Shown piece after piece: positions 457 to 31,580 of a DNA stretch of 33,072 nucleotides; the first letter of the stretch is position 1, and every line of letters begins with the position of its first letter. The translations under genes and the position numbers were made by a program. The stretch is from Pseudomonadota bacterium (lineage in GTDB: Bacteria > Bdellovibrionota > FAC87 > UBA2466). The stretch is from contig JAYUGC010000081.1 in the NCBI GenBank assembly GCA_043767805.1, positions 1 to 33,072 of the forward strand, given 5' to 3'. The notes beneath the pieces are model-generated. The model was not told where the DNA came from. It ran no database searches and was given only the letters and a program-made list of their open reading frames with translations.

Positions 457-603
457 ATGCTAATACAAAGACTGAAACGGCTCGCAGCGAAGCTATATGC
501 TCTGCTGAAGGAGCCTCGTGGCCGCTACGGCGGGTTCACGAGTGGCGATAAAACCGCGAGATCGATCTCGAGCTTCTCGAAGCCAGAGAACGCCAGACTG
601 TGA
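457..603 (+). CDS. Putative 48-aa small protein, paralogous N-terminus to 289-453
   Basis: GGAGG at 446-450; MLIQRLKRLAAKLYALLKEP...; overlaps the 3' end of the P450 gene convergently. Confidence 0.35.
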   Translation: MLIQRLKRLAAKLYALLKEPRGRYGGFTSGDKTARSISSFSKPENARL

Positions 604-1760
604 TGCTTGCGCTGAACCGCGCCCGAAAGGCGAAGGTCCGGAAATCGACGGAGTAGCTCTCCGAAGCAAGCCACCATCTGGATCCGCGCGAGTTTTGCGC
701 CCAGACAAAAATGAGGTCCGTACCCATACGCGAAGTGCGGGTTGTGCTTTCTATCCAGAACGCATTCCTCCGCGCGCTCGAATTGAGACGGATCGCGGTT
801 CACGGCGTGGTTCGCGATGAATACGACTCCGTTATCCGGAATCGTGACGCCGCCCAGCTGCGTCTCGTGCTTGGCGACGCGAAAAAGAAACGTCACCGCC
901 GGGTCTAAACGGTTGAACTCCTCGAGCGCCGCCGGAAGAAGCTCGGGACTTGCCACGATGGCCTGCTTGGCGCCCGGCCGGGTAAGCAGCGAGTACATGT
1001 TGTTGCAAAACTGGTCCGTCGTCGTCACTTGGCCCGCGACGAGCATCATCATGGCCTGAGAGACCACCTCCTCGTCGGTAAGCCCGAAGCGCGCCTGATT
1101 GCGGAGCAGGATGCTCAAGAAGTCTCCGCTCAAGGCGTCTCGCCGGCGCCCGATCAAATCACGGAAGTAATCCCTGAGACGGCTCGCGCTCTTATTTACT
1201 TCGACCCCGTCTTCGTTGCGGTACCGTGAGGCCCCGCCGAAGAACTGGGTCATGTTGTTCGACCAGCGGTAGAAATCCGCGCGGCTTTCTTCAGGGATGT
1301 GAAAGAGATCGGCCAAAACGATCGAAGGCAGAGGGACCGCGATTTCTTCGACGAACTCCAGCCTTCCTGAGTGGCTTGCGTCGTCGACGAGCTTTTTCAC
1401 GGTGCGCTCGATCAGGGGCCGGTAATAGTCCAAAAGTTCGTCGGTCAAACCCATTCCCGCGGTTTTGCGGCGGGTCGCGTGCTCCTTACCGTCGCTCATG
1501 ACCATCATCTTGCTGATGACGCCAAAGAAATCGGTGATGAGACGCAGGTCGAGATTAGGCATGCGAGAAATGAAGAACGAAGACCGGTCCGCGCTGTAGT
1601 CCTGGCTGCGCAGTACGGTTTCGGCGAGCGCGTAGTCCGTGACGATGAAAAATTCGCCGCGTTGCCACCAGGATACGGGCCCCTGCGCTCGCAGCAGCCC
1701 GGCGAAGACATCCGGCGAAGTTTGAGTCTTGGTGTCCAAGAGCGGTTGATCGGGCAACAT
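525..1760 (-). CDS. Cytochrome P450 (411 aa)
   Basis: Heme motif FAYGYGPHFCLG, ExxR (EFNR), I-helix AGQVTT; start re-called to ATG 1760 behind GTAGGAG because the longer ORF overlaps pvcB. Confidence 0.95.
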   Translation of the reverse strand: MLPDQPLLDTKTQTSPDVFAGLLRAQGPVSWWQRGEFFIVTDYALAETVLRSQDYSADRSSFFISRMPNLDLRLITDFFGVISKMMVMSDGKEHATRRKTAGMGLTDELLDYYRPLIERTVKKLVDDASHSGRLEFVEEIAVPLPSIVLADLFHIPEESRADFYRWSNNMTQFFGGASRYRNEDGVEVNKSASRLRDYFRDLIGRRRDALSGDFLSILLRNQARFGLTDEEVVSQAMMMLVAGQVTTTDQFCNNMYSLLTRPGAKQAIVASPELLPAALEEFNRLDPAVTFLFRVAKHETQLGGVTIPDNGVVFIANHAVNRDPSQFERAEECVLDRKHNPHFAYGYGPHFCLGAKLARIQMVACFGELLRRFPDLRLSGAVQRKHHSLAFSGFEKLEIDLAVLSPLVNPP

Positions 1761-1771
1761 GAGCCAATCTC

Positions 1772-2575
1772 CTACAAAATCTGAACGCGTCTCAAATGCC
1801 TCGGGGTTTCCCGGGTAAAAGCGTTCCGGCCATGCACTAACGTATGATTGTCGGCGATGAGGTAATCCCCCGGCTCCCACTGATGCAGGTAACTCGCCTT
1901 GGGATCGTAAAAACGATGGGCGAGGTCGCCCAAGAGATCGGCGCTGTGCCCGCCTTCGCAGGAGACGGTGACCGGGTTTAGCTTCGTCTCGACCGGCTCC
2001 GCGAAGCGCAGAACGGGGACGCCTGACTTGGGATGGCGCTGAACGAGATCGACGGTGAGGGAGCCGCCGTAATGAGCGACTTTCTCCGTCGTGTACGTCA
2101 GTCTTGCCTTGGCCCAGACCTCGCGATCGGCCTTGGAGGCCGATTCCCAAACTAGTGCCGTATTGGTGAATCGGGTCTCACCCCCCGCATCCCTCGCCGG
2201 AGCTTCGAGACAATGGAACACCAGGAAGCTCGGCACGCGGTGAAAAGCTCCGTCCCAGTGAAGGGGCACCGCCTCGCGAGAGAAGAGATAATTCTTGGCT
2301 TCGGAAGCCGGCGTCATCTCCATCACGGGGCCGGACTCCCAATGCAGAAGCTCTCCCTGAGGATAAGAGAGACAAAAGTCGAGCAGACCTTCTTTTGAGA
2401 CCCGCTTGAAGCCGCGAAACACGACGAGCGGCGAGGAGGCCAGAAGATCTTGCCTCAAAGCGCCAGACAGCTCGGAGAGCACTTCGTGCTTTCTCGCCGT
2501 CACCAGGGTGCCGAACGGGCTCAGAGGCTCGACCTGATACAGCTCTTTCAGCTGAGGCAAAGTTTGAACAATCAT
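1772..2575 (-). CDS. pvcB: Fe(II)/2-oxoglutarate-dependent oxygenase, PvcB/IsnB (TauD fold)
   Basis: PLHWDG and DNHTLVHGR facial-triad motifs, LRRVQIL C-terminus; ATGA overlap with pvcA stop. Confidence 0.9.
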   Translation of the reverse strand: MIVQTLPQLKELYQVEPLSPFGTLVTARKHEVLSELSGALRQDLLASSPLVVFRGFKRVSKEGLLDFCLSYPQGELLHWESGPVMEMTPASEAKNYLFSREAVPLHWDGAFHRVPSFLVFHCLEAPARDAGGETRFTNTALVWESASKADREVWAKARLTYTTEKVAHYGGSLTVDLVQRHPKSGVPVLRFAEPVETKLNPVTVSCEGGHSADLLGDLAHRFYDPKASYLHQWEPGDYLIADNHTLVHGRNAFTRETPRHLRRVQIL

Positions 2576-3540
2576 ACCCAACCCTCCTCGCCCGAAGAGA
2601 TCTTAAAGTAACCATAGCCTTTGTCGCAGCGGACGAGTCTCGCGCCGGCTTGCTCCGCCGCGCGGCGGGTGGAGAGCTCGAACCGCTCGCCTTTTCCGAC
2701 AACGACGCCATGCCAGGGTGTGCGCCAGATGTTGCGGCTGGGCAAAAGCTTCACGCCCAGCTTTTCGGAATCGAAGCCTTGCGGGTGAATCGAAAGGCGG
2801 ACCGCCTCGGGAAATTGTTTCTGCACGAGCTCGCTCCAAGCATTGCTCCGCTGAATGACTTCGTAAGCGAGGGACTTCGCTTCCTCTCGCACGCGCGAGC
2901 GGCTTTTCGCGGGCTCCATCACGATGCGATCTTCAAAGAGAAAACGGTGAATGCCGTTAAAGAGACTGCGGTGGTCGGCGTCCTCTTTCGTGCGGCGGTG
3001 AATGACTTCCACCGGTTCGGCGAACGTCTCGACGAGCTCCCGGCGCATGTCACCGAACTCAAAGCCCTTAAAGCAATCATCCAGATCGAAAGTGGAGAGA
3101 CGAGTGAGCCCCCACGAAGACAAAATCTCTCGGATACCGAGACTGTAAGCGTTCACGTCCTCGTCCTTCACTCGCACGAGGTCGCTGAATACCCTTCCGT
3201 CCGAACAAATGATCAGCTGAGCTCCGGGGCTATGGAAGACCTCGATCTTGCGGCAAAGCTCGTCCAGCCGCTTGAGGGCTAGCACTTCGCCGTAGTCAGG
3301 GAGATGGCTCAGGGTTTTTTCCGGGTTCGGTGATTTCGCGGGAAAAGCGGGAAGCACCATCTCGAGAAGGGCTTGAGTCTCCACCGCCCGTTCGATCTTT
3401 CCGCGCAGCTTGGCGAGCACCTCGGGGCTTTTGACTTCCCCTTCCGTCAGGGGATTCGCAATCTCGAGCAGCAACTCGAGGATGGACTCGACGGCCCCCT
3501 GATTGATTTCGTTCGGTCTGTAGGTCGGCACGGCCAACAT
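2572..3540 (-). CDS. pvcA: L-Tyr/L-Trp isonitrile synthase, PvcA/IsnA/Dit1 family (322 aa)
   Basis: LPAFPAKSPN, SDGRVFSD, RLSIHP, TPWH motifs; start re-called to ATG 3540 behind GGAGG. Confidence 0.92.
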   Translation of the reverse strand: MLAVPTYRPNEINQGAVESILELLLEIANPLTEGEVKSPEVLAKLRGKIERAVETQALLEMVLPAFPAKSPNPEKTLSHLPDYGEVLALKRLDELCRKIEVFHSPGAQLIICSDGRVFSDLVRVKDEDVNAYSLGIREILSSWGLTRLSTFDLDDCFKGFEFGDMRRELVETFAEPVEVIHRRTKEDADHRSLFNGIHRFLFEDRIVMEPAKSRSRVREEAKSLAYEVIQRSNAWSELVQKQFPEAVRLSIHPQGFDSEKLGVKLLPSRNIWRTPWHGVVVGKGERFELSTRRAAEQAGARLVRCDKGYGYFKISSGEEGWV

Positions 3541-3640
3541 GAGAGTCTCCCTCCAAGAAACAGTCTCTCCGGCGCGGGGCGATAAATAAAATTGAAAGAC
3601 CGCATGCGTGTCATAGGCCCGATTAATGCCCAATTAGGCT

Positions 3641-6761: not shown

Positions 6762-7043
6762 ATGGAAAATACCGCCAAGCGCCACCCGAGTCTGAACCAA
6801 TACTTCTGTCTGGAACGGAGTGGCCTGCGTGGCTCGCCGCTTTGCCTCGGCGCCATGACCTTCGGCACCGAATGGAGCTGGGGCAGTCCCGCCGACACCG
6901 CTCAGCGGATCCTAGACACCACTTGGACGCGGGCGGTAATTTCGTCGATACCGCCGACATGTATACCAGCGGCAAGAGCGGTCATGCAGGGCATGATCAC
7001 GGGCGGAGCGATTGTCCGGGCCGAGCCAAAATCGTTTCGCTAG
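6762..7043 (+). pseudogene. Aldo/keto reductase remnant (frameshift plus large internal deletion)
   Basis: RSGLRGSPLCLGAMTFGTEWSWG in one frame, LDAGGNFVDTADMYTSGKS in another (shift near 6920), then a jump near 6980 to a C-terminal-like VMQGMITGG segment. Confidence 0.85.
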
Positions 7044-8866
7044 GGCAGCGTAAGTAAGCTCGACGGCTCCGGAGTTTTCCAGAGCGACAGCACGGGAAGG
7101 CTCGCGTCCTGCACTTGATTCGCGCGCACGATACGCACGAATCTCTCGGGATTCTGCTTCAGAATCTTTTCCCAAGCCTGCGCCTGCGCGGGGCCTCGGC
7201 GCGGGTTACGCCAGAAAGCGCGTACGCGATCCTTGCCATCGGAATCCGTTACCTGCACCAGGTACATTTCCCAGTTGCTCGGATCGGTATTCACCGGCGG
7301 CAAATTCTTGAAGTACTTGCCCAGATCGAGCGGAGAGCGTCCCAGCGCGACGATGTAACTTCCGTTCTGACGGCGGCCGGCGAGCTGCACGGCGCCCTTT
7401 CCTAAGATCCCTTCGAGAGCCTGATAGACTCCGCCTTGCATTTGCTTGAAGGTGTCCAAGCCGAGATCGGTGATGCCCGCGCGCTCACTGGTAAGCTTAG
7501 CGGCACTCACGCGCTCGGCCTGCGTGAAGCGAAGCACGTCGGCCGTGGTAAGACCCGGCTGATGCGCTTTGAGCATGGCGAGCACGCCTGCGAACAAAGC
7601 CGCCGCATTGGAAGTGCCCGAGCTGCCCATACCATCGGTAAACTCGATGGACGAGCTGGCGAGCACCAGGTCGGGCTTCGAGCGCCCATCGGCGGTGGGA
7701 CCGAGAGCGGAAATTTGCGATTTGTCTCCGACGGCGATGACCTTCGGATGATCCGCGGGAATCATGATCTCGCCGCCTTCGGTGGCGTCGAGGAACTCGA
7801 GCGGATCCACGGAGCTGCCCACGTTGGAGTCGAAATAGGGAGCGCTTTGCGAAAGCAGCGTGATGCGCACTCTATCGAACGAATCGAACGTGCCGCCCTT
7901 GGCTTTCACCTTGATGAAATAGGTACCGCGCGAAACGCGTCCTTCGACGATCTCGCGGGGGACATAGCTTTCGCCCGTCGCGCGCTCGACGCCTTCTTTT
8001 TTGACGACCTGCTTGAGATCCGCCTTCATGATCTCTTTGCCCGCTTCGTCGAAGACGTAGAGATCCAGATCCTTCTCCGTACCGGAGGTCTCTTCGTCCG
8101 TGTACTGGTTCCAGGAAAGCACGGCCTTGAACGGGTTTCTGTCGAGGCGGCTCTTCACGCGAAGACCGGCGCCCTGGGCTCCGAGACGTACCCATTGATC
8201 GGCTCCGACGGAAACGGTCGCGTTGTGCACGCGGCGGCCGTAGTTCCCCGCGGCGTTGACCCACAAGATGCCGGCATCCGTCGCGGAACTTACGATCTTG
8301 TTGATGAAGCCTTTACCGTCGAAGTTACCGCCGTACTCCCAGTTCTGGCTAAAGAGGACGATGTCGACCTTTTCGTCGATGCAGTACTGAACCGCGCGGC
8401 CAAAGTTGGTGAGGCCGTTGGAATTGAGCAAAAGAATTTGAGGCGCGTCGATGGAGGAGTTTCCGGTGACGGCCCAGAGAGCGAGCGCCATGGCGCGGCC
8501 ATGATCGTCATTCTCGTCCAGAGCGTTCTGATCCGAGGGCTTACCGAGCTTGTGTTTCTCGAGGAAAGCCGCGTCGTAGGTGGAGGTTAGCTTGAAGATC
8601 GAAGGCGGAAGCTCTTGATCCAAAGTGAACGTCTGCCCGAAGCCCTTGTCGAGCACGGCGACTTTCAGCGTGCGAAGACGGTCCTTCACGCCACTTACCG
8701 AGTCGTACTTATCGACTCCAAGAGTTTTGCGCAGCTCTTCGAGCCGCCGGACTTCGATACTTTGAGCAAAAGCCAAGGCTGAAGCCCAGGCCAACGCAAG
8801 AGCGAGAAAGCGACGCACCACCACAGACGCCACCCTTCCTTTAAAAAAACGGAGGAGCCTCCACAA
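7040..8866 (-). CDS. Secreted S8 (subtilisin-like) serine peptidase with inserted beta domain and C-terminal extension
   Basis: VAVLDKGF (Asp), DDHGRAM (His), NAAGN (oxyanion Asn), GTSNAAA (Ser); signal peptide ...SALAFA; GGAGG before TTG start. Confidence 0.9.
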   Translation of the reverse strand: MWRLLRFFKGRVASVVVRRFLALALAWASALAFAQSIEVRRLEELRKTLGVDKYDSVSGVKDRLRTLKVAVLDKGFGQTFTLDQELPPSIFKLTSTYDAAFLEKHKLGKPSDQNALDENDDHGRAMALALWAVTGNSSIDAPQILLLNSNGLTNFGRAVQYCIDEKVDIVLFSQNWEYGGNFDGKGFINKIVSSATDAGILWVNAAGNYGRRVHNATVSVGADQWVRLGAQGAGLRVKSRLDRNPFKAVLSWNQYTDEETSGTEKDLDLYVFDEAGKEIMKADLKQVVKKEGVERATGESYVPREIVEGRVSRGTYFIKVKAKGGTFDSFDRVRITLLSQSAPYFDSNVGSSVDPLEFLDATEGGEIMIPADHPKVIAVGDKSQISALGPTADGRSKPDLVLASSSIEFTDGMGSSGTSNAAALFAGVLAMLKAHQPGLTTADVLRFTQAERVSAAKLTSERAGITDLGLDTFKQMQGGVYQALEGILGKGAVQLAGRRQNGSYIVALGRSPLDLGKYFKNLPPVNTDPSNWEMYLVQVTDSDGKDRVRAFWRNPRRGPAQAQAWEKILKQNPERFVRIVRANQVQDASLPVLSLWKTPEPSSLLTLP

Positions 8867-8893
8867 GAGGCCCCTCCGAAATGTTTTTAACTA

Positions 8894-9445
8894 TTACCAG
8901 CCGTAGTTGCTGTAGAGCGAGTAGTAGCAGTTATTGTAACCGCCACCGTAGTAACTATTGCCGTAGTAGCCACCGCTATAACCACCGGCGTAGTAGCCGT
9001 AGTTGTAACCGTAGTTCCAGGCCGGGGTGTAGTAGCTGCGGTATCCGCCGTAGTACCCGTAGTAGCCGCCGCCGTAGTAGTTACCGGAGTAACTACCGCG
9101 CCAACGCCACCAACAGGCAGCCGTCGAACCGTCGGAGTCGAGCTCGCTGCCGACTTTCTCGACTTTTTCTTCCGAGATCTTGTTCTCAGGCTTCGCCGCT
9201 TTCTTGACGAAAGCGTCGATGCGGGCGGTGCGCTCGGCATCCGAAAGACCTTTGAGGGCCTCAGGGCTGACCGAAGCGTCGATCGCGTCGACCTTGAACT
9301 GGGTCACGGTTTGGGTCTCGTGATTCAACTGCTGAAGAATCAAAGACGGGACTTTTTTAGGGCCATCGAGTTCGCTGTCAGCCCGAACGCCCGTACCGAG
9401 TACGAGGAGAGCCAAAGCGAGGATCGCATACTGATTGAACTTCAT
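8894..9445 (-). CDS. Secreted prepropeptide-like protein with Tyr/Gly/Trp-rich C-terminal domain (183 aa)
   Basis: GGAGG before ATG 9445; signal MKFNQYAILALALLVLGTGVRA; charged pro-region; 73-aa tail with 25 Y, 19 G, 5 W. Confidence 0.85.
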   Translation of the reverse strand: MKFNQYAILALALLVLGTGVRADSELDGPKKVPSLILQQLNHETQTVTQFKVDAIDASVSPEALKGLSDAERTARIDAFVKKAAKPENKISEEKVEKVGSELDSDGSTAACWWRWRGSYSGNYYGGGYYGYYGGYRSYYTPAWNYGYNYGYYAGGYSGGYYGNSYYGGGYNNCYYSLYSNYGW

Positions 9446-9867
9446 TATAGGAACCTCCAAATTAATCGCGCTGAACATGTCTCTGCTGGGAAAGGGCTGG
9501 TTAGCATGATCGCAGAAGTCGATCAACGCTAAAGGTCGGGACAGAGGTTTTATTTATCATTTCAAATGGTTATTTGATGTGACCCGCTTCGTCACCTCGA
9601 AAAGAATCACGTAATTTTGACCCGGTTTTCCGGAAAAATTGCCTGAAAGCAGGCGGCGGGGACGCCTCCCTGGGCCACCGGATGTCGAAGGAGTGACACC
9701 CCTGAAAGCCCGCCACTTTAAAGGAGTTAGCCCGAAATCCGGAAACGGCGTGACCAAAGCTTCGCCACGGGAAAGGGGTGAATACGCAAGGTCTACTCTC
9801 GGCACCCGCCTTGCACAAGGGACCTGCGGGTTTGTTGTGGCTCGTTTCTGGTTTTCGAGGTGAGTGG

Positions 9868-12051: not shown

Positions 12052-14049
12052 CTAGCGCGTGACCGGATGCTCGATGGTGACGAGGTCTCCGAGCACGTTC
12101 AAGCCTTCCTGCAAAGACGGATTGTCTAGGTACTCTTTGAGGTCATCCGCTTCGCGGGTGGCCTTGTTCTTCCTGGCGTCTTTCTTCTTGTCCTTATCGG
12201 CCTTCGTCTCTTCTTTGTACTTCTTGCGGATTTCGGCGAGCTTCACGATGCCCTTGTTCTTAGCGCGCTCTTCAATCTTCTTTTTGATTTCAGCGAACTT
12301 GGGCTCGGCATCAATGCGCGTCTTGGCCTGGGGAACGAGCTTCGCGATGATTTTCTCGTCGATAGGCGTCCAATGCTTGTCGCCTTCCGGACCGTTCGCC
12401 TCATTCGAAGTAAACGACTTGATGGAGTTGGGCGGTAACGAGTAATCGAGCGTCTTTTCGCCTATTTCATCGTTATCGAGAACGCTCGGCATGACTACGT
12501 GAGACGAGACGCCAAGAGCTTGAGTGCTCTGTCCGCCCGGCAAGAAGAACTGGCCGACGGTGACCTTGATGGCACCAAGACCGGGCGGAAGCCCGTTCAC
12601 GGATTGCACGGTGCCTTTACCGAAGGTGTGATCTCCGCCCACGATGACCGCGCGCTTATAGTCTTTGAGGGCGCCCGCGAGAATTTCCGAAGCGGAAGCG
12701 CTGATCCGGCTGGTCAGCAGTACGAGGGGTCCGGAGTAAACGACGTCCTCGTCGGGATCGGTGAGCACGTCGACCTTACGATCCTGGCCGTTGGTGGCAA
12801 CCACGCCGCCGGAACGGATGAAGAAGCCCGAGATCTTCACGGCTTCCTCGAGAAGGCCGCCGCCATTGCGGGAGACATCTAACATGATCCCGTCGACCTT
12901 CTTATCGTTGGCTTCTTTCAAAAGCTTCTTCAAATCGACGGAAGCCACGCGCGAGCCGGCTTCGCCGCCGCCGTAGAAGGAGGGCAAATCGATGATGCCG
13001 AGCTTCAGATCTTTTCCGCCCACTTTGCGGGTTTGGTAGACAATCTTCGCGGCCTGCTCCTTGATGTCGATCTTGTCGCGGACGATGGTCGCCTCGAAGC
13101 TCTTGGTCTTCTCCGTCTGGCGGAGAATGGTGAGACGCACTTTCGTGCCCTTCTTACCGCGGATGAGCTTTACGACTTCGCGCAGCGGCATGTCGATGAC
13201 GGAGGTCGCTTCCTTGCCTTCTTGCGCGACCATGATGATCTTATCCTTCGGCTCCAGCTCGCCTGAGCGATCGGCGCTGCCGCCGGGAATGAGCGCTTCG
13301 ATTACGACGAAGCCGTCTTGCGAGCTAAGGGAGGCGCCGATGCCTTCCAAGGAAAGCTGCATCTGGATTTGGAAGTCCTGCATGTCGTCCCACGAGAGAT
13401 AGCTCGTATGGGGATCGAGACCGACGGCAAATGCCCCGACGAACTCTTCGACGAGATCCGCCATCTTGCGCTCCTGGAAGCGCTTGGTGATCAGCTCGTA
13501 GCGGTGGATCATGCGCTTCTTGGCGTCGGCGAGCTTAATGTCGGCGAGAAGCAGGCTCGACACTTCGAAGTGGAGCACTTTCGCGAGAAGCGCCTTCTTC
13601 TCATCCGGCGTCTTCGGGTAGTCGCGGGTCTTCGGATCGAGATTGAGCTCCACTTTCTCGTCGAGAACGTACTTCGGTCCCAGGAACTCGCGAACGAAGT
13701 TCTCCGATTCCTTGGCTCGGGTCTGAACGATCTTGGAAAGAGAGTCCAGCGTCTCGCAGTTTCCTTTTTTGGCGGACTCAAAAACCGGGGGCAGCTCTTT
13801 TCTGAATTTCTCGACGTCTTCCTGAAGGAGGAACGTCTTCAAGGTGTCCATCCGGCGGATGAACTGCTCCGTGGTGTGATTCTTAAGATCGTCGCTGAGG
13901 CCTTCGTATTGGTAATGATGCTTGAGGAAAAGATCGACCAGCTTCGGCAGGTACATGCACTGGAGGGCTGGGCCCGCCGCGTTCGCTCCGACGGAGAGAA
14001 TGAGGGCGAGAAGAGCCAAGAGAGAAGTAAGATAGCGCCGGGAAGCCAT
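12052..14049 (-). CDS. prc: Tail-specific protease Prc/Tsp (S41A, PDZ)
   Basis: LDPHTSY, LEGIGA (PDZ loop), IDLPSFY, RNGGG, SASASE (Ser), FGKGTVQ (Lys); signal peptide; long N- and C-terminal Prc-type domains. Confidence 0.92.
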   Translation of the reverse strand: MASRRYLTSLLALLALILSVGANAAGPALQCMYLPKLVDLFLKHHYQYEGLSDDLKNHTTEQFIRRMDTLKTFLLQEDVEKFRKELPPVFESAKKGNCETLDSLSKIVQTRAKESENFVREFLGPKYVLDEKVELNLDPKTRDYPKTPDEKKALLAKVLHFEVSSLLLADIKLADAKKRMIHRYELITKRFQERKMADLVEEFVGAFAVGLDPHTSYLSWDDMQDFQIQMQLSLEGIGASLSSQDGFVVIEALIPGGSADRSGELEPKDKIIMVAQEGKEATSVIDMPLREVVKLIRGKKGTKVRLTILRQTEKTKSFEATIVRDKIDIKEQAAKIVYQTRKVGGKDLKLGIIDLPSFYGGGEAGSRVASVDLKKLLKEANDKKVDGIMLDVSRNGGGLLEEAVKISGFFIRSGGVVATNGQDRKVDVLTDPDEDVVYSGPLVLLTSRISASASEILAGALKDYKRAVIVGGDHTFGKGTVQSVNGLPPGLGAIKVTVGQFFLPGGQSTQALGVSSHVVMPSVLDNDEIGEKTLDYSLPPNSIKSFTSNEANGPEGDKHWTPIDEKIIAKLVPQAKTRIDAEPKFAEIKKKIEERAKNKGIVKLAEIRKKYKEETKADKDKKKDARKNKATREADDLKEYLDNPSLQEGLNVLGDLVTIEHPVTR

Positions 14050-20479: not shown

Positions 20480-22471
20480 CTAGGGCTTTCGCGACACGGC
20501 GCTCCGCTCAGCGGATTCACGTCTCTCGATAGCCGCGAGCTCGGAAGCGATATTCACCGCGAGGCCAAGCTCCGATTCACGGCTTTCTTCCCCGCTAATT
20601 CGCTTGGCTTCTTCTCCGGGAGAGAAAGGATGAGCCGCGCGAAGCTCGGCGGCGTGCTGCTCGAGCACGGCGCGCTTGCTTCCGATTCGCGCGAGCGACG
20701 AAGCATCCATGAAAGGCTCGAGGTCGCGCACCTTGCCCGGCTGAGCCGGCTCGGCCGCGTTCGCAATCGAGATGTGCGTGAGCACGCCGCCGTTCGCGGG
20801 GGTGTGACCCAAGGGAGAATAGAAGAGCGAAGTGGTGAGCTTCACCACGCCCGAGGCCGGCAAGCCCGCCCACTGCGCGCCGAGAAACTCGTCGCCCAGG
20901 TGAAAGAGCTTCTGGACGCTGCCTTTGCCGAAAGTATGAGGCGTCCCGACAAGCAGAGCTCGTTGATGATCGCGAAGAGCGCCCGCGAGGACTTCGGACG
21001 CGCTCGCGCTATCGCCGTCCACGAGGACCACTAAGGGACCGGCGTAGGTGAGCTCTCCTTTATCGTCTCTGAGAATGCGCTGAGAATCCTGGCCGACGAC
21101 CGCGACCACGGGAGCGTCCGCGATGAAGTTCCCGGCCATGGAGACCGCTTCTTCCAGGTAGCCTCCCGGGTTGCCCCGCAGATCGACGATGATGGAGGAC
21201 ACCGGCTTTTGATTGTCCAAGATTCCCTTGAGCGCGTTCTCGAAATCTTCCGCGCTGGAATGCTCGTCCGGATCGCTCAAAGAGCCGCGGCCGTAAAAGG
21301 AAGGCACTTCGATGACGCCGACAGCGCCCTTGCCTGCTTCAGGCACAATGACCCGGCTCGACACGCGTGATTCCTGAAAATCGAAATGGCGGCGGGCAAG
21401 CGAGATGATTTTCGTCGCCCCGCTTTTGGGTTTTTCCACCGTGAGCCGGACCACGGAGCTCGGCGCTCCTTTGAAAAGTTTCTTCGCGTCCCGGTCGCCC
21501 ATCTCGTTCAAGCGCCGGCCGTCCAAGGCCAAGATGAGATCGCCCGTTTGCACTTTGCCCGAGTCCATGGCGGGCGAGTCGGGAATGAGACCTTCCACGA
21601 GATAGCCGCGCGGAACGCGGCGCACGCGGACGCCGATGCCGGACACGCCGCCCGAAAGATCGGAATAGAAATCATCGAACTCGTCCGAGGAAAAGTAAGT
21701 GGAGTACGGATCGAGCGCGCCGAGCACGCCCTTCGCAAAAAGAAGCCGGCTGAAGCCGGAGTCGGGAAACAAGGCTTGCTCCATCACGGCGCCAATGAGC
21801 TTCGCGCGGTTATCGCCGTAAGCCGCGATGAGCGCGGGGCTCGCCGTATCGTTTAACTGGCGGGCGTAGTTCTCGAGACGCGCGGAGAGCTCCGCTTCGT
21901 CCTTCGCAAAACCCTGATAGGTTTCCCGAGGCGAGTCCCACTCTTCATTGCCGGAAACTTTTTTGGGAGCCGCCGCTCCGAGCTTCGCGGTGAGAGCCGC
22001 GACTCTGGCGTGAAAGCTTTCGCGAAGGCGCACGCGCTCTTCGAAAATCCAGCGATCGAAATATGAGCAATCGCGGTGCTGAAGGAACTCGTTCCACGGC
22101 CCTTCGGCCGAAGCGGCGAACGCGTCCACTTCCGATTGTACGAGGAGTAAGCGGGAAGGATCGAGACGACGGCTCACTTCCTTGGCGACATCCGCGCCGA
22201 AACTCTTCCCGTGGAGAGAAACCCCCCGCTTTCCGCCGTAACGCTCTTCACTCCAAGTGCTGATGCGATGCACTTCGGAACAAGAAAGTTCCCCCGCACC
22301 GCCCGCCTGAACGTGAGCCGCGAGTTTCGCGGTTTGGCGTTTCTGAATGCCTTGGAAAAAGAAAAAGGCGACTAAACCTGAGAAAGCCCCTAACGCAACC
22401 GCACGTACCTGACGACTCAAAACGCGCAACCCCCGCTTAGCGGCCCCTAAACTTCCTCCGACTCCCGGCAA
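20480..22471 (-). CDS. Second S41 carboxyl-terminal processing protease (start uncertain)
   Basis: LDPYSTY, SGIGV (PDZ loop), VPSFYG, DLRGNPGG, SASASE, FGKGSVQ; N-terminal TM helix. Confidence 0.88.
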   Translation of the reverse strand: MPGVGGSLGAAKRGLRVLSRQVRAVALGAFSGLVAFFFFQGIQKRQTAKLAAHVQAGGAGELSCSEVHRISTWSEERYGGKRGVSLHGKSFGADVAKEVSRRLDPSRLLLVQSEVDAFAASAEGPWNEFLQHRDCSYFDRWIFEERVRLRESFHARVAALTAKLGAAAPKKVSGNEEWDSPRETYQGFAKDEAELSARLENYARQLNDTASPALIAAYGDNRAKLIGAVMEQALFPDSGFSRLLFAKGVLGALDPYSTYFSSDEFDDFYSDLSGGVSGIGVRVRRVPRGYLVEGLIPDSPAMDSGKVQTGDLILALDGRRLNEMGDRDAKKLFKGAPSSVVRLTVEKPKSGATKIISLARRHFDFQESRVSSRVIVPEAGKGAVGVIEVPSFYGRGSLSDPDEHSSAEDFENALKGILDNQKPVSSIIVDLRGNPGGYLEEAVSMAGNFIADAPVVAVVGQDSQRILRDDKGELTYAGPLVVLVDGDSASASEVLAGALRDHQRALLVGTPHTFGKGSVQKLFHLGDEFLGAQWAGLPASGVVKLTTSLFYSPLGHTPANGGVLTHISIANAAEPAQPGKVRDLEPFMDASSLARIGSKRAVLEQHAAELRAAHPFSPGEEAKRISGEESRESELGLAVNIASELAAIERRESAERSAVSRKP

Positions 22472-23342: not shown

Positions 23343-23855
23343 ATGCCTGGGGGGTTCGAAATCACGCTATGGGCACTTCTGGCCATCGCCAGCGTCACAG
23401 ATCTGCTTTGGGGCAAGGTCTTTAACGCGACGACTTTTCCTTTTCTATTCGCTGGATTGATCTGCCGATTCGTCTGGCTTGGTGCTTCCTCTCTCCAAGA
23501 GGGAGCTATTGCCATTGGCGTCGCCTTTACCCTCTTCTTCCCTCTTTGGATTTTGAAAGCCATGGCGGCGGGCGACGTGAAGCTCCTCATGGCGGCGGGC
23601 GCGTGGAGCGATTCCAAAACCATCATCTCGGTGGCCATCACTTCCATTTTGATCGGCGCGCTTGTCGGCCTCGTGGTCCTTCTCGGCAAAGAAGGCCCCA
23701 GGAAAGGTGCCGCGAGCTTTCTTTCTCTTTTTCGCAAGGACGCCAACGTAAAGCCGAGATACCGGATGCCGTTTGCCCCGGCGTTTCTCGTCGCGTACGC
23801 GTTTTTGCAAATTGCCCAGATGAAAGGATGGCAGCTGCCGTGGATTGGCGTCTGA
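23343..23855 (+). CDS. cpaA: Prepilin peptidase CpaA/TadV (A24)
   Basis: SVTDL and AAGDVKL aspartates, MPFAPA motif, multi-TM. Confidence 0.9.
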   Translation: MPGGFEITLWALLAIASVTDLLWGKVFNATTFPFLFAGLICRFVWLGASSLQEGAIAIGVAFTLFFPLWILKAMAAGDVKLLMAAGAWSDSKTIISVAITSILIGALVGLVVLLGKEGPRKGAASFLSLFRKDANVKPRYRMPFAPAFLVAYAFLQIAQMKGWQLPWIGV

Positions 23856-24103
23856 AATCACGACGGGGACAAAGCGGGCAAACGTCCGTGGAGTATTTAC
23901 TGCTCCTCTCCGTCGCGTTCATCACGGCGTACATCGTAATCACGGGGCCGGTCGCGACCTTCGCGAACGGCATGATCAACGGAATCAAAGTGGGACTTTT
24001 GAATGTGGTGCAAAACGCGGAGCTGACGACTTCGGCTCCGGTCACGGCGGGATCGGCGGGACACCCGAGCGATCCGGCCCGGATGAGGCCTTTGCACTTA
24101 TAG
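23828..24103 (+). CDS. Minor pilin (Flp/TadE-like); start ATG 23828 or GTG 23840
   Basis: GQSG|QTSVEYLLLLSVAF. Confidence 0.75.
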   Translation: MAAAVDWRLKSRRGQSGQTSVEYLLLLSVAFITAYIVITGPVATFANGMINGIKVGLLNVVQNAELTTSAPVTAGSAGHPSDPARMRPLHL

Positions 24104-24110
24104 GAGATAG

Positions 24111-24641
24111 ATGAACTGGAAACGGAAAATTCGATCGCAAGCCGGACAAGCCGGAATCGAGTTCATGGGGATCATGGTCGTGGTCTTCTTTTTCCTTTTC
24201 TTCTTCATGAGCCTCGCCATCACTTTGATCGTGAGCGACTACCTCGAGTACGCGACCTTCATGGCGGCGCGCACCTATAAGGCGGGAGCCAGCACCAAAG
24301 CCAAGCAAGAGGAGCACGCGCAGCTCGTCTTCGATACCTATTTCCAGAAGATTCAAGGCATCGCCCGCAACCCGGGCCGGCTCACGTTCCTCGCGGCGGA
24401 CTCCAAAGACGAGCAAACCCAGGGTGTACTCGCCAATTACACGGTGGACCTCTTTTATCTGCCGCCGGTTTTCATCGGCAAAGGCTCCCCCGGCAGCACC
24501 ATGAACCTGAACGCGGAAGCCCATCTGGGCCGAGACCCTTCGTTCGAGGATTGCATCGGGTTTTTCGACAATTTCGGTTCCAAGGTACTCGGGATTCAAA
24601 ACTCCAATTTGATTGATCAGCTGGAGGACAATGGGTGCTAG
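24111..24641 (+). CDS. TadE-like pseudopilin
   Basis: AG|QAGIEF, TM helix, YATFMAAR motif. Confidence 0.8.
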   Translation: MNWKRKIRSQAGQAGIEFMGIMVVVFFFLFFFMSLAITLIVSDYLEYATFMAARTYKAGASTKAKQEEHAQLVFDTYFQKIQGIARNPGRLTFLAADSKDEQTQGVLANYTVDLFYLPPVFIGKGSPGSTMNLNAEAHLGRDPSFEDCIGFFDNFGSKVLGIQNSNLIDQLEDNGC

Positions 24642-24975
24642 AGCGAAAAAACGAACGGGTCAGCGTGGGCAGGCCACCATCGAGATGGCCATGTGCCTTC
24701 CGATCATCATTACGCTCATTTTTTACACCATCAATTCCTATTACTCCATTCACACGGCCCACGTGGGCCAGCGGTACGCCGCCATGAACATGTACCAGCG
24801 GCTAAATAACCGCTCGAAGTTCGTGGTGGACGACGTGGCGAATCTGCCGACGGGAAAAAACTTCATCGCGGTGAAGTACGGGGATCGGGAACGCAACGCG
24901 CCTAAGAGAAAAATTTTGCTGGGACCCATCGATATCAATACGACGGTGGGAATTTGTAGAGAGCCAGGCTGTTAA
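24631..24975 (+). CDS. TadE-like pseudopilin
   Basis: RG|QATIEMAMCLPII; GGAGG before ATG 24631. Confidence 0.8.
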   Translation: MGARAKKRTGQRGQATIEMAMCLPIIITLIFYTINSYYSIHTAHVGQRYAAMNMYQRLNNRSKFVVDDVANLPTGKNFIAVKYGDRERNAPKRKILLGPIDINTTVGICREPGC

Positions 24976-24976
24976 C

Positions 24977-25897
24977 ATGGAAAATAAGAAGGCATTCATA
25001 GTCTCAGGAATCTGCTGCATCGTTTCGTTGCTGCTTATTTCCGGCTACGTCACGCAGCGGGAAAAAGAGCTGACCAGCGACATGGGCGAGCGTGTGGAAG
25101 TCGTCGTCGCGAAACAAGGGATCGAAGAGTACCGCCTCATCCGCGAAGACATGGTCGAGACCACCACCGTCTTTAAAAAGTTCTTTCAGCCTTCCGCCGT
25201 GAACAACATCAGCGACGTCGTCGGTAAATCGGCCTACGTGCCGCTCTACCCCGGCGAGCAAATCGTTTTGACGAAACTCGTCTCTCAAGACGGAAAGCCG
25301 GTCCTGGATCGCCAAGTCGAGCGCAACATGCGGGCGGTCACCATCAAGATTTCCCCGCACACCAGCGTCGCGCAACTCGTGCGGCCCGGCGATCGCGTGG
25401 ACATCATGGCGGCCCCCAACTACGACATGGGCGGCGTCATGATTTTCGAGATCAAGACGGTAGTGCAGAACGTAATCGTTCTCGCCACCGGCAAGAGCAT
25501 CCAGAACTCGGTGCCCACCCGCATCGACAAGGAGCTCATGGGAAGCCTCGAAGAGGAGTTCCAGAAGGAAGGACGCCGGGACTTCGGCGGCAGCGGACGG
25601 GACGCCTTAAATACCCATCGGCCCGACGCGGACTACGCGACGCTCACCCTTCAGCTTTCGCCCGAAGACGCGAAGCGGGTTTTGTTCCTGAGCCACACGT
25701 TCGGCGACAACCGCCTCTACTTCACCCTTCGCAACTCGGGCGACGTGGAAGTGGCGAAGCTCGACACGACCCTTTTGGACGACGTTTTAGGACCGGAAAG
25801 CGATTACGGACGCAGTATGAAGAAGCCGCCGCCGATATCTCCTCCCAAAGAGCGGTTTAACGACTTAAAGGGCGGCCTAGCCGTGCCCGTTTACTAA
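24977..25897 (+). CDS. cpaB: Flp pilus assembly protein CpaB/RcpC (copy 1)
   Basis: TM helix, SAF-like VVVAKQGI, MRAVTI...VRPGDRVDI, QNVIVLATG. Confidence 0.9.
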   Translation: MENKKAFIVSGICCIVSLLLISGYVTQREKELTSDMGERVEVVVAKQGIEEYRLIREDMVETTTVFKKFFQPSAVNNISDVVGKSAYVPLYPGEQIVLTKLVSQDGKPVLDRQVERNMRAVTIKISPHTSVAQLVRPGDRVDIMAAPNYDMGGVMIFEIKTVVQNVIVLATGKSIQNSVPTRIDKELMGSLEEEFQKEGRRDFGGSGRDALNTHRPDADYATLTLQLSPEDAKRVLFLSHTFGDNRLYFTLRNSGDVEVAKLDTTLLDDVLGPESDYGRSMKKPPPISPPKERFNDLKGGLAVPVY

Positions 25898-25910
25898 GGT
25901 GATTTGAGCC

Positions 25911-26822
25911 ATGGAACGTAGAGCCTTATTAATGTCCCTCGGCATCTCGGCCTTCGCGGCCTATATGGTGTGGAGCTATATCTCGGGCAAAGACGCCGAG
26001 CTCCGCGACATGTACGCGGTGAAGTTCCCGATGGTGGTCGCCTCCCGGGACATCTTGCAGTACCAAACGATTCGCCCCACCGACATTGAAGTAGTGAGCG
26101 TCCCGAAAGCCATGGCGCCCCTCGGCCGCATCTCGGAACCCAAAGACGTCATCGACGCCGTCGCTGCCGTGCCCATCCAAAAAGGCGAGCACGTCTTGGA
26201 TAACAAGATTATCTCGAAGAACGTCTACTCGGGCCTGAACACCCAGATTGGTCTCGGCCGGCGCGCCATCAGCATTCCCGTCAACGTGAAGAGCTCCGTG
26301 GCCTATCAGATTCGCCCGGGCAATCGCATCGATCTCGCCGCCCACTTCGAGTACAAGGCGAAAGCCGCGAACATCTCGGAAGTGAAAGTTTTCCTGCAAG
26401 ACATACTGGTGCTCGCCGCCGGTAAGACCATTCAATCGACCTCTCCCAAGGGCGTCGATCAGAAGTTCTTGCGCTCGCTCATGAGCCAGATCGGCCAGGA
26501 CGCGCCAAAGAGCGCCGACGAAGCACGCGAAATGCTCAACTTCGCGAAGACGGAAGCGAACTACCTGACGGTCAGTCTCGAGGTCACCCCCGAGCAGGCC
26601 CAGAGAATCGTTTACGTCATGACCGTTTTCCCGGACTCAATCATTCTTCTTCTCCGTCACTCGGACGACCGGACCCTCGATCGCATCCCGACCGCCAACA
26701 TCTATGACGTCATGGGACCCGACTCGTACCTGGTGAAGGGCAACCAGAGGCCGCCCCCCAGGGCGGTGCCAAGACCTAAATTCTTCGACTACGTCGGAGA
26801 CCAAGCAGTGCCCGTCTATTGA
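25911..26822 (+). CDS. cpaB: Flp pilus assembly protein CpaB/RcpC (copy 2)
   Basis: VVASRDI, RRAISI...IRPGNRIDL, LQDILVLAAG, VSLEVTPEQA. Confidence 0.9.
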   Translation: MERRALLMSLGISAFAAYMVWSYISGKDAELRDMYAVKFPMVVASRDILQYQTIRPTDIEVVSVPKAMAPLGRISEPKDVIDAVAAVPIQKGEHVLDNKIISKNVYSGLNTQIGLGRRAISIPVNVKSSVAYQIRPGNRIDLAAHFEYKAKAANISEVKVFLQDILVLAAGKTIQSTSPKGVDQKFLRSLMSQIGQDAPKSADEAREMLNFAKTEANYLTVSLEVTPEQAQRIVYVMTVFPDSIILLLRHSDDRTLDRIPTANIYDVMGPDSYLVKGNQRPPPRAVPRPKFFDYVGDQAVPVY

Positions 26823-26844
26823 CGGTGGAGAGAGCAAGGGAAGT

Positions 26845-28503
26845 ATGGAAAAGAAACTTAACATAGGAAGTTACGGGAAGGTGGCCTTCGGCCTCTTTCT
26901 CGCTTTCGCCACGGTATCGGCGGGTCTTCTCGTTGCGGAAGAGAGCTCGGTCAGCGCAGCGGCGAGCAAAGCTAAAGCGAAAGAGGACGAAGAGGAAAAG
27001 ACGAAGGACCCGGCACGAGAAGTGACGGCTCCCCGGCGCGTGGCCCTCACCCTTTCCACCGGCGTATCAAAGACGCTGGAATTTGATTTCGACATCGGTC
27101 CCATTTTCGTAACGGACCCGACGCTCTTTGAATACCGCCGCGTAAAAGACGGCGACAAGGAAAGACGTTTGCTCCTCCGTGCCACGTCTTCCGGTTATAC
27201 GGACATGACCGTCCACGACTTGAACGGCGCGCCTCGCGTGACCTACACGGTTCAGGTCTTGCGCGAAGACGCCCCCCGGGTCATCAGCCAACTCGACGAG
27301 TTGCTCGGCGACATCGAAGGCTTAAAGATCCGGGTCATCGGCGGCACCATCATGCTGGACGGCGAGATCCTCTTGCCCAAAGACATGATCCGCATCATGC
27401 GCGTGGTCGCGGCTTTGAAAGACCGCGATCCCAAGAAGAAAGAGATGAATATCAAGAACCTTGCGACCATCAGCAAGATGACGATGAACATCCTGGCCGA
27501 GCGCATCGAGCGCGAGATCGGCTCTCCGGAAATCACCTCTCGCGTAGTGAACAACAACGTCTTCCTGGAAGGCACGGCGGAAAGCGACTTCGAAGCGGAT
27601 CGCGCGGTGGAAATCGCGAAGACCTATCTGCCTGAAGTCTTCATCGAGCCCACCAAAGGCGAAGGCGGCGAAGTGAAGCCGAAAGCCGCCGGCGGTACGG
27701 GCGGCCTGCCGGCCATCGTCGATTTGCTCCGGGTACGCCCGCGCCAAGCGTCGCCCCCGGCTCAGGACATCAAGATTACGGTGGACTACGTAGAATTGAA
27801 CAACGAGTACGAGAAGACGTTCAACTTCGAGTGGAAACCGCTCGCGGGTGACACCAGCACCATCAAGTACGATAGCGCCTTGGGCGAACTGTCGGCGAGC
27901 TTGGTGGCGACCGTAAGTAACCTCTTTCCGAAACTCGTTACGGCGAGAAGCCATCAGCACGCCCGTGTACTGAAGGAAGAGTCCATCATTGTGAAGGATC
28001 GCTCCGACGTGCCGAGCGTGATTGAGAGCTCCATCAAGCTCTACTCGCGTATCGTGAACGAAAAAGGCGAGGCTTCGCTTCAGGAAATCCCGGTCCAGAA
28101 CGTGACGAAAGTTCGGGCCGCGACCATTCCGGGATCGGACAGCATCGATCTCGGCGTGCAGATTTCCTTGAACAGCTTGCTCGGCCAAAACTCGGGCGCG
28201 CCCATCATCGCCACCAACTCCCTCCAAACCCAAGTCACCGTAAAAAACGGCGACTCGGCGGCTTTGGGCGGGTACGCGGTCGATTCCGCGCTCTCGGGTT
28301 ACAACCGGGAACCGACGCGCTCCGTGGGCAGCGCCCAGGCGGCCGGTTCGAGCTCACCTCTCTTCAACCTGTCTCGGTCGAAGAGCTTCCGGCGAGACAA
28401 GCAGCAGTACATCATCTTCGTCACTCCCGAGATCCTCAGAACCGCGAGCGGAGCGACGGAAGATATAACCAGGAAATTCCGTCTGAACGCCGGAGAACGT
28501 TAG
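26845..28503 (+). CDS. cpaC: Tad secretin CpaC/RcpA with BON-like domains
   Basis: Signal peptide; secretin C-terminal TQVTVKNGDSAALGG and IIFVTPEIL; position between cpaB and the ATPase. Confidence 0.85.
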   Translation: MEKKLNIGSYGKVAFGLFLAFATVSAGLLVAEESSVSAAASKAKAKEDEEEKTKDPAREVTAPRRVALTLSTGVSKTLEFDFDIGPIFVTDPTLFEYRRVKDGDKERRLLLRATSSGYTDMTVHDLNGAPRVTYTVQVLREDAPRVISQLDELLGDIEGLKIRVIGGTIMLDGEILLPKDMIRIMRVVAALKDRDPKKKEMNIKNLATISKMTMNILAERIEREIGSPEITSRVVNNNVFLEGTAESDFEADRAVEIAKTYLPEVFIEPTKGEGGEVKPKAAGGTGGLPAIVDLLRVRPRQASPPAQDIKITVDYVELNNEYEKTFNFEWKPLAGDTSTIKYDSALGELSASLVATVSNLFPKLVTARSHQHARVLKEESIIVKDRSDVPSVIESSIKLYSRIVNEKGEASLQEIPVQNVTKVRAATIPGSDSIDLGVQISLNSLLGQNSGAPIIATNSLQTQVTVKNGDSAALGGYAVDSALSGYNREPTRSVGSAQAAGSSSPLFNLSRSKSFRRDKQQYIIFVTPEILRTASGATEDITRKFRLNAGER

Positions 28504-28512
28504 GGTAGATCT

Positions 28513-30690: not shown

Positions 30691-30701
30691 GGATAGACGA
30701 C

Positions 30702-31580
30702 ATGGAACTTTCGACAATCTTAAAATACGTCTCGATCGGCTGGGTGGGCGGCGTCATCCTGGTAGGGCTTCTCATCAACGGCGACAAGCTCTACTCGTGG
30801 GCGGGCGGCAAGATCATGGGCGAGACCGAGTGGATGGTCGCGAAGCTCGATCTCATGTTCATCGAAATAACCGTGCAGCGCTGCTTACGTAACTACAGCA
30901 TCTACCTGGCTTGTCTTTTTCTCCTTGGGCCCTTCCTCCTGTATCCGTCCCTCGGGGGCGGCGTGGTGTTCGGGCTCCTTTTCCTTTTCATCGGCTGGAA
31001 GCTTCCCGGCAAAGCCATCAACATCATGCATAAGCGCCGGGTGAAGAAGTTCGTCCTCCAGATGGTGGACGGCCTTTCCCTCATGTCGAACTCCCTTCGC
31101 TCCGGCCTTAACGTGAACCAGGCCTTGCAGCTCGTTTCCGACGAGCTGGCGAATCCGATCTCTCAGGAGTTCAACCTGGTGCTCAGCCAGAACAAACTCG
31201 GTCAGACGCTCGAAGACGCCATGTCGAACCTGGCCGTGCGCCTCCCGGCCGATGACGTCGAGATGTTCACCACCAGCGTGAACATCTTGAAAGAGACCGG
31301 CGGTAACCTCGCCGAAACCTTCGAAACGATTTCCTATACCATCCGTGAGCGCATCAAAGTGGAGTCAAAAATCTCCGCGATGGTCTCTCAGGGCGTCATG
31401 CAAGGAGTCATCGTCGTATTGATGCCCTTCGCCCTAGGCGCGGTGCTCTACACCATCGATAAAGAGCGCATCCTGCCGATGTTTACGACGATTCCGGGCT
31501 GGGTGTTGCTCACCCTCATGATGATGCTTCAGTTCGCGGGTGGATTCGCCATCTGGAAGATCATTCAGGTCCGCGTCTAG
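30702..31580 (+). CDS. tadB: TadB inner-membrane platform protein (T2SSF)
   Basis: NSLRSGLN, NPISQEF, ETGGNLAETF; directly after tadA. Confidence 0.9.
   Translation: MELSTILKYVSIGWVGGVILVGLLINGDKLYSWAGGKIMGETEWMVAKLDLMFIEITVQRCLRNYSIYLACLFLLGPFLLYPSLGGGVVFGLLFLFIGWKLPGKAINIMHKRRVKKFVLQMVDGLSLMSNSLRSGLNVNQALQLVSDELANPISQEFNLVLSQNKLGQTLEDAMSNLAVRLPADDVEMFTTSVNILKETGGNLAETFETISYTIRERIKVESKISAMVSQGVMQGVIVVLMPFALGAVLYTIDKERILPMFTTIPGWVLLTLMMMLQFAGGFAIWKIIQVRV

Follow-up and report, generated by a model that had tools for sequence, protein, structure and literature searches.

Pairing of a secreted Tyr-rich precursor with an S8 protease across Bdellovibrionota: a candidate processing system

What might a secreted S8 (subtilisin-like) protease do for the small, Tyr-rich secreted protein encoded next to it? 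This question is raised by two genes on the minus strand of contig JAYUGC010000081.1 (assembly GCA_043767805.1), which was analysed as one stretch of 33,072 nt, here called the window. A preliminary description of the window had reported a protein of 183 amino acids (aa) with an aromatic C-terminal core beside an S8 protease, and had proposed that the protease cuts the protein and releases a fibre, adhesive or antimicrobial peptide. Judged from sequence, the pairing of the two genes is real, specific and widespread, and it is apparently undescribed. The best reading, to which we assign a probability of about one half, is a dedicated processing pair that frees a self-assembling aromatic beta-peptide. 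The earlier observation is confirmed, and its interpretation is partly supported.

Conservation of the gene pair

The two genes had been described as coupled, and a profile search with the pro-region, combined with its co-occurrence with the S8 gene, had been suggested. Two profiles were made. Profile A2 covers only the signal peptide and the pro-region and was built from 16 sequences; the broader profile A5 was built from precursors adjacent to S8 genes. In the 401 genomes of the window's phylum, A2 matched 64 genomes and A5 matched 87. A2 also matched 126 cluster representatives, and A5 matched 160 database proteins, some of which are named Bdellovibrio or Pseudobdellovibrionaceae. The protease subfamily was found in 95 of the 401 genomes (E <=1e-20), and 646 database proteins match its profile, those of Planctomycetota among them.

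A precursor gene lies within about 2.1 kb of the protease in 88 of the 95 protease-positive genomes; five are cut by a contig end and two lack it. Linkage is thus found in 88 of the 90 assessable genomes, which are related to each other and not independent. The calls come from 89 protease-centred loci (81 automatic, two by hand), with six further genomes added. For the less circular profile, A2, 63 of the 64 matched genomes carry the protease. The count for A5 is 86 of 87, the exception being without an aromatic core, and it is partly circular because A5 was built from S8-adjacent precursors. The 306 protease-negative genomes gave one match for each profile, neither with an aromatic core; the profile matches in genomes G291 and G310 were rejected as false positives, the core being absent. 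The window genome has 18 S8 matches in total, and at the 17 loci other than this one no precursor-like neighbour lies within 1.5 kb. The claimed coupling therefore holds as both conserved and specific.

The precursor gene is usually directly upstream of the protease gene. Some pairs are divergent, one is convergent, one has the precursor downstream, and in three loci about 2 kb of other genes separate the two. Across about 94 loci the flanks vary by lineage, and no third gene family stays with the pair outside single lineages. The correlation of pair distances (Spearman 0.65; nearest neighbour shared in 42 of 81) was not used as an argument for co-evolution, as it is confounded by kinship.

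Both genes were also present in four metagenome-assembled genomes labelled Verrucomicrobia, whereas the protease was found in none of 250 further genomes of the phylum of that label (the phylum of G401), which fits transfer of the pair as a unit. In these four loci (L025, L027, L029, and L030), Glu replaces the catalytic Asp, the protease open reading frames (ORFs) of 813-940 aa have long C-terminal extensions, and the cores are richer in Pro, Arg and His. Protease homologues from Planctomycetota (P0173, P0207, P0210, P0223, and P0240; Gemmataceae, Urbifossiella, Zavarzinella) show 44-47% identity.

A strict scan for intrinsic terminators was positive after the precursor gene in 29 of 76 loci, compared with 0 of 380 coding windows, 5 of 93 cases after the S8 gene and 9 of 322 co-directional genes of the window genome. 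Genomes G001, G243, G282, and G339 have additional precursors with no protease gene beside them, the protease being found elsewhere in all four. The frequent terminator between the genes and the extra precursors fit a substrate-and-enzyme relation, in which the precursor is a substrate rather than an equal partner of the protease.

The window genome itself has a divergent orphan precursor (G000:C36:13000-13647, minus strand) with a signal peptide, a P-x-V-I-V-V hairpin and a Tyr-rich core; it has no ELD junction and no protease nearby, and a counterpart was found in L180. Further Tyr/Gly-rich, acid-free ORFs (G000:C79:8466-8936, plus strand; C187:18189-18839, minus strand) fall outside the pro-domain profile.

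Parts of the precursor and the protease

The features of the pair in the window are listed in Table 1. The family alignment comprised 133 sequences, namely the window protein, 114 of the 126 representatives and 18 locus proteins, with fragments and atypical lengths excluded. Their common layout is a signal peptide, an N-terminal ELD motif, a small pro-domain predicted to be folded, an ELD-x7-W/C junction and an acid-free core. Both SELD motifs of the window protein (residues 24 and 100) turned out to be family features, with an ELD-like motif after the signal in 107 of the 133 sequences and before the junction in 115. The junction consensus is ELD-x3-S-T-x-A, then Trp (91/133) or Cys (26/133), and the residue before the predicted cut (P1) is small (Ala in 90 and Ser in 28 of 133). 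The spacing E[LMFY][DE]-x7-[WC] is kept in 97 of 133 sequences, and ELD-x7-W in 120 of 120 Bdellovibrio-type sequences. The abrupt switch from pro-region to core in the preliminary description thus keeps a constant spacing to the second ELD, which is what a cleavage site would be expected to show.

The pro-region is charged, as had been described, but it is not a mere charged spacer, since AlphaFold gives it a confidently folded structure (mean block predicted local distance difference test, pLDDT, of 94-97 for aa 41-90). In the models, it is a compact domain followed by the ELD-x7 linker of fixed length. No clear structural match to this domain was found (best Z 3.3; none by Foldseek at E <=0.001), which does not in itself prove a new fold. 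The top matches in the ESM Atlas (0.82-0.85) were unnamed clusters from Planctomycetota, Nitrospirota and phages, and are leads only.

The core of the window protein agrees with its earlier description (Y25 G19 S7 N7 W5 R3 C2, with neither Asp, Glu nor Lys). A 50-aa stretch with at least 15 Tyr and none of these three residues occurs in only 4 of 16,792 six-frame ORFs (at least 100 aa, whole genome). The precursor gene uses TAC for 24 of 26 Tyr and GGY for 23 of 25 Gly, compared with 66% each genome-wide, and this codon bias fits a real, well-expressed gene. Family cores are 56 aa long at the median and contain 32% Tyr, 17% Gly, 10% Trp and 8% Asn; Tyr, Trp and Phe together make up 46%. Arg accounts for 4.9%, Lys for about 0, and aliphatic residues are almost absent; 116 of 133 cores have no acidic residue. 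The cores extend to the stop codon, the last residue is aromatic in 107 of 133, and Trp is found within the final three residues in 104, compared with 38 expected. The suggested closure by a disulfide was rejected as a family feature because, with Cys counts of 0-8, 24 of 133 cores have none and 62 have one (0 or 1 in 86).

In the 120 Bdellovibrio-type cores, Gly, Pro and alternating Tyr are near-invariant, and a hairpin-like motif, P-x-Ar-x-Ar-x-Ar-x-x-Ar-x-Ar (Ar, aromatic), is found in 111, compared with 8.7 in shuffled sequences. Mean column identity in these sequences is 0.89 at the junction, 0.71 in the core and 0.55 in the pro-region, the core value being inflated by low complexity. The core thus appears to be under selection.

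The view that the precursor was undescribed also stood, as no characterised family matched. Among the window precursor and its 133 relatives, no Pfam or NCBIfam family was common to more than two members (E <=0.01), and the family is apparently undescribed. A search for a sigma-70-like promoter found none, a plasmid search gave no match, and a search of viral contigs gave nothing useful.

The protease is a peptidase of family S8, as seen from the order of the triad, the oxyanion Asn and the fold (Z 20-26). It matches PF00082 (E 1.5e-12), and the triad is intact as had been reported; in 99 aligned sequences the catalytic residues are kept in 90 (Asp or Glu), 94 (His), 90 (Asn) and 94 (Ser). The preliminary description placed its start 27 nt downstream of the precursor gene. 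This start, TTG at 8866, falls within the 13-bp GC-rich terminator hairpin, and GTG at 8824 (or 8821/8818), 9 nt after the Shine-Dalgarno sequence AGGAAGG, is likely to be the better choice from the sequence context. The gap between the genes would then be about 70 nt and would span the terminator.

No I9 propeptide was found by Pfam in the window protease. Between the end of the signal h-region and the catalytic Asp, the subfamily has a median of 36 aa (n=71). Of the other S8 proteins of the same genome, 10 could be measured, and in 7 of these the distance between Met and the Asp motif is 118-162 aa. The short stretch shows that the subfamily has no propeptide. The protease model (pLDDT 93.7) shows a subtilisin core, a beta-sandwich insert and a second insert near the C-terminus. 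The best Foldseek matches were the clostridial proteases CspA, CspB, and CspC (PDB 9pr9, 4i0w, and 6mw4; E 3e-16 to 1e-13), and CspB aligned with Z 25.4 and a root-mean-square deviation (rmsd) of 5.1 over 362 residues, jelly-roll included. In a wider fold search, site-1 protease, Vpr and Tk-SP were found at Z 25.6-26.4 over about 250 residues. The protease apparently represents a distinct, undescribed, propeptide-less S8 subfamily with a Csp-like insert. Of the 99 aligned sequences, 5 are second protease copies, located directly downstream, that lack the catalytic residues (L092:1411-2685, L097:1161-2774, L114:1654-3090, L125:4350-5852, and L140:4150-6273); these degenerate copies recall the Csp pseudoproteases.

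Table 1. Features of the precursor-protease pair in the window
Feature	Position	Strand	Basis
Ribosome-binding site of the precursor gene, GGAGG	9454..9458	-	upstream sequence
Precursor gene, 183 aa (signal, pro-domain, aromatic core)	8894..9445	-	sequence and family alignments
Sec-type signal peptide, aa 1-22, ending GVRA, no lipobox Cys	9380..9445	-	judged by eye; model helix 6-17
First SELD (residue 24), at the mature N-terminus	9365..9376	-	family motif [EQ][LFMIY][DE]
Predicted folded pro-domain, aa 31-95: beta-hairpin, helices, strand	9161..9355	-	AlphaFold model
Junction SELDSDGSTAA, aa 100-110; predicted cleavage after Ala110	9116..9148	-	family consensus
Tyr/Gly/Trp core, 73 aa, from Cys111, without Asp, Glu or Lys, C-terminal Trp	8897..9115	-	sequence
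Intrinsic-terminator-like hairpin (13 bp, 9 G-C; 8850-8878) and T7, between the genes	8843..8878	-	strict scan
S8 protease, 594 aa: signal, about 35 aa, catalytic domain without I9 propeptide	7040..8824	-	probable start GTG 8824
Catalytic Asp; His; oxyanion Asn; Ser	8648-8650; 8501-8503; 8243-8245; 7610-7612	-	aligned to subtilisin BPN'
Beta-sandwich (jelly-roll) of about 150 aa inserted after the oxyanion Asn	7784..8233	-	model; shared with clostridial Csp proteases
Second, C-terminal alpha/beta insert, lineage-variable	7100..7522	-	model; no Pfam match

The pair in Bdellovibrio bacteriovorus HD100

A database protein of 132 aa (P0300) matches A5 at E 5e-23, and its source names it as B. bacteriovorus HD100 CAE78432.1 / Q6MQL5. 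Q6MQL6 is Bd0449, a 57-kDa S8 'putative protease' (PMC3898049 Table 2; PMC12546842 supplement), and the adjoining Bd0450 is a hypothetical gene of 399 nt (PMC3627812 supplement). From the consecutive accessions and the matching length, Q6MQL5 is probably Bd0450. From adjacency, size and label, we infer that Bd0449 belongs to the S8 subfamily described here.

By the RNA-seq values in reads per kilobase per million (RPKM) in the supplement of PMC3627812, Bd0450 has 0.8 in attack phase and 198 in growth phase, and Bd0449 has 0.8 and 66, respectively, if the columns are assigned by their dnaA and Bd0108 rows. According to the supplement of PMC12546842, the Bd0449 protein is maximal at 3 h, before exit (log2 fold change 0.86, false discovery rate 2.6e-7, 20 peptides), and declines afterwards. 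The microarrays in the supplement of PMC2797640 show Bd0449 up 2.0-2.8-fold (p 0.003) and Bd0450 up 1.3-2.1-fold (p 0.095) in prey-independent growth, and no significant change of either gene on prey entry. Bd0449 was detected in culture supernatant, and that supernatant had no effect on the growth of Staphylococcus aureus (PMC3898049). The HD100 core, which would begin at the Trp following ELDQDGGASS, has 41 aa and neither Lys nor Arg; routine trypsin proteomics would therefore miss it, which may explain why it went unnoticed.

In the main texts searched, Bd0450, Q6MQL5, CAE78432, and NP_967439 did not appear, and Bd0449/Q6MQL6 appeared only in a table of PMC3898049. The searchable data in the supplements of PMC6561027, PMC11271337, and PMC12228718 contain neither Bd tag, other locus tags being possible there, and the main texts of PMC13689555 and bioRxiv 10.1101/2025.09.24.678257 gave no match to the relevant terms. 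Searches of full-text literature found no description of the pair; subscription journals and some supplements outside this coverage may bear on its novelty.

Possible processing and its alternatives

Both proteins have signal-like N-termini and are linked across the phylum, as their sequences indicate, and both would be exported via Sec. The propeptide-less protease would then recognise the ELD-x7 linker, probably aided by its inserted beta-sandwich, and cut between Ala or Ser and the following Trp (or Cys). We regard such cleavage of the precursor by its partner protease as probable. The cut would free an acid-free aromatic peptide of 40-70 aa with Trp at or near both ends. Given cleavage, it is somewhat more probable than its opposite that the acidic pro-domain holds the core soluble until that point and that the freed cores then stack as beta-hairpins via Tyr ladders, so that an insoluble fibre, film or coat forms either in the periplasm or extracellularly. 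The HD100 data suggest that these steps would belong to growth, be it inside prey or prey-independent, and not to attack. The precursor would be produced in excess over the enzyme, and a single protease may serve several precursors.

Several observations weigh against this reading, in addition to the kinship of the genomes, the circularity of A5 and the low complexity of the core. Two proteases (L143 and L191) have no nearby precursor, and 47 of the 76 loci have no terminator by the strict scan. The aromatic core is disordered in the AlphaFold monomer (pLDDT ~40). The strict hairpin motif is found in only 23 of the 133 members of the wider family (shuffles 7.4, maximum 13), the window's own core has no strict match, and an aromatic i+2 periodicity is visible only as depletion at lags 1 and 3. 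No CsgG/FapF-like export or assembly genes are conserved nearby in the approximately 94 loci, and Bd0450/Q6MQL5 is absent from the part of the PMC12546842 proteome data that was searched.

ASP, a serine protease from Aeromonas sobria, is folded and inhibited by an external chaperone, ORF2 (PMC5638518; PDB 3wqb). Since the enzyme described here has no propeptide, the pro-domain may play the same folding or inhibiting role for it as well. The small protein might even be chiefly a trans-acting propeptide, i.e., a folding chaperone and temporary inhibitor whose tail plugs or targets the enzyme and is maybe discarded. We consider this unlikely, though it is compatible with a processing pair. ASP and ORF2 also combine a propeptide-deficient S8 protease with a small secreted partner encoded next door; the absence of a propeptide throughout the subfamily, the modelled fold of the pro-domain and the match of PDB 3wqb to the protease (Z 17.9, rmsd 3.2, 251 aligned) agree with this idea. 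The prediction of a complex between the protease and the pro-domain with its junction gave weak support to this idea and to the processing reading alike, with a score of 0.38 and no interface (best control 0.00; contact agreement between runs >=74%, partner pLDDT >=57); the mark for this score is passed by 116 of the 157 solved pairs and by 2 of the 215 mismatched ones, and at <=0.60, where 18 of the solved pairs and both mismatches are found, passes are more often wrong than right unless the complex is likely beforehand. However, the excess of precursor and the orphan extra precursors suit a product better than a 1:1 chaperone, and the core is conserved more than the pro-domain. Unlike ORF2, the partner here is encoded upstream, has an aromatic core that is conserved, and is also present in additional copies. 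The precursor profile found nothing better than E 0.4 among PDB sequences, ORF2 included; ORF2 is also not among the matches listed for the fold of the pro-domain, which does not exclude homology. A combined form, in which one protein is both trans propeptide and substrate, so that folding of the protease is coupled to release of a polymerising Tyr/Trp beta-hairpin peptide for a fibre or coat inside prey, is fairly unlikely.

If the processing pair does release a peptide, self-assembly into a fibre or coat leads among its functions, followed by membrane activity and then storage. A membrane-active product, either a membrane-oligomerising beta-hairpin or an antibacterial or prey-damaging peptide from which the pro-domain shields the producer, likewise seems unlikely to us. 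Trp at both ends, Arg as the main charged residue, the usually aromatic last residue and the predatory hosts suggest such a role, as do the maximum of the HD100 protease before exit and its presence in the supernatant. Typical antimicrobial peptides, however, are cationic and amphipathic, and in the cores charge is low and aliphatic residues are scarce. In addition, no immunity gene is conserved nearby, expression is absent in the attack phase, and the HD100 supernatant left S. aureus unaffected.

It is improbable that the precursor stays uncut and acts whole, as an adhesin, scaffold or protease anchor, with the two genes merely co-regulated: the conserved motif can equally be a binding site, but the small P1 residue, the fixed ELD-x7, the switch of composition at an exact point and the intact triad argue for cleavage. 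Least probable is a storage role, in which aromatic amino acids would be packed into the core at times of plentiful prey and later mobilised by the protease, as the aromatic content, growth-phase expression and high-expression codons would allow, since the position-specific invariance of Gly, Pro and Tyr and the fixed junction go beyond the needs of storage, the protease declines after exit instead of rising, and the proteins are exported, not cytoplasmic.

The pair would work like a leader-peptidase module and, by the features tested, is outside the LanP, cyanobactin, curli/Fap and Csp systems. Curli (Csg) and Fap consist of secreted, aggregation-prone subunits rich in Gly, Asn and Ser; the cores here would form Tyr/Trp rather than Gln/Asn ladders, a protease-gated pro-domain is present, dedicated secretion genes are lacking, and none of the 133 precursor members matched a curlin or Fap family. 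Csp proteins carry a prodomain, and CspB removes the propeptide from pro-SleC. The likeness to these germination proteases is in the jelly-roll within the catalytic domain and, in some loci, the dead second copy; the phylum and the substrate differ, identity is 12-18%, and a prodomain is absent here. As in LanP/NisP and ribosomally synthesised and post-translationally modified peptides, an S8 gene is next to the gene of a precursor in which an acidic leader is joined to a distinct core (PMC10885120). Here, however, the precursor brings a Sec-type signal of its own along with a pro-domain modelled as folded, no modifying enzyme or transporter is conserved in the approximately 94 loci, and the protease lacks the propeptide of the prepro-protein NisP. 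In PatG macrocyclisation, an S8 protease removes a follower sequence after the core (PMC10885120); head-to-tail cyclisation of this type was rejected, as there is no follower and the cores reach the stop codon, mostly with an aromatic end. The nearest analogy for the product, and an analogy only, is eukaryotic: in the coccidian Eimeria, subtilisins cut the Tyr-rich precursors GAM56 and GAM82 into Tyr-rich peptides of the oocyst wall (PMC4345034). Dityrosine cross-linking is unsupported here, since the conserved surroundings of the bacterial pair include neither a peroxidase nor an oxidase.

Elsewhere in the window (525-3633, minus strand), a PvcA/Dit1-like isonitrile synthase (2572-3633), a TauD-type dioxygenase (1772-2581) and a cytochrome P450 are arranged in a row that resembles a small isonitrile-type biosynthetic cluster. 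These genes were rejected as a Tyr-modifying unit of the pair, as they recur near it only in the close relative L021 and do not figure among its conserved neighbours. A short, apparently frameshifted gene remnant (6762-7057, plus strand) has no Pfam match as a fragment, and we take it to resemble an aldo-keto reductase; its intact counterpart, an ORF of 373 aa, directly follows the protease in L021 (L021:8442-9560). The window also contains a Tad/Flp pilus cluster (23343-31580, plus strand; prepilin peptidase, two CpaB/RcpC, secretin, ATPase, T2SSF) and two tail-specific (S41) proteases (12052-14049 and 20480-22471, minus strand).

Our findings define two apparently undescribed families, present in roughly one in four genomes sampled from the phylum, and an apparently homologous pair is present in the genetically tractable laboratory strain HD100. 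The orphan growth-phase protease Bd0449 of this model predator thereby gains a concrete, testable candidate substrate. If the core self-assembles, the system would be a bacterial counterpart of the subtilisin-processed Tyr-rich wall proteins, and would provide a natural solubility tag with a specific protease for peptides of very high aromatic content. Chaperone and substrate would be united in one chain, an unusual economy, if the pro-domain has the further role of folding the protease. Should trans propeptide, substrate and polymer all prove to be combined, the pair would represent a new class of protease-gated biological material.

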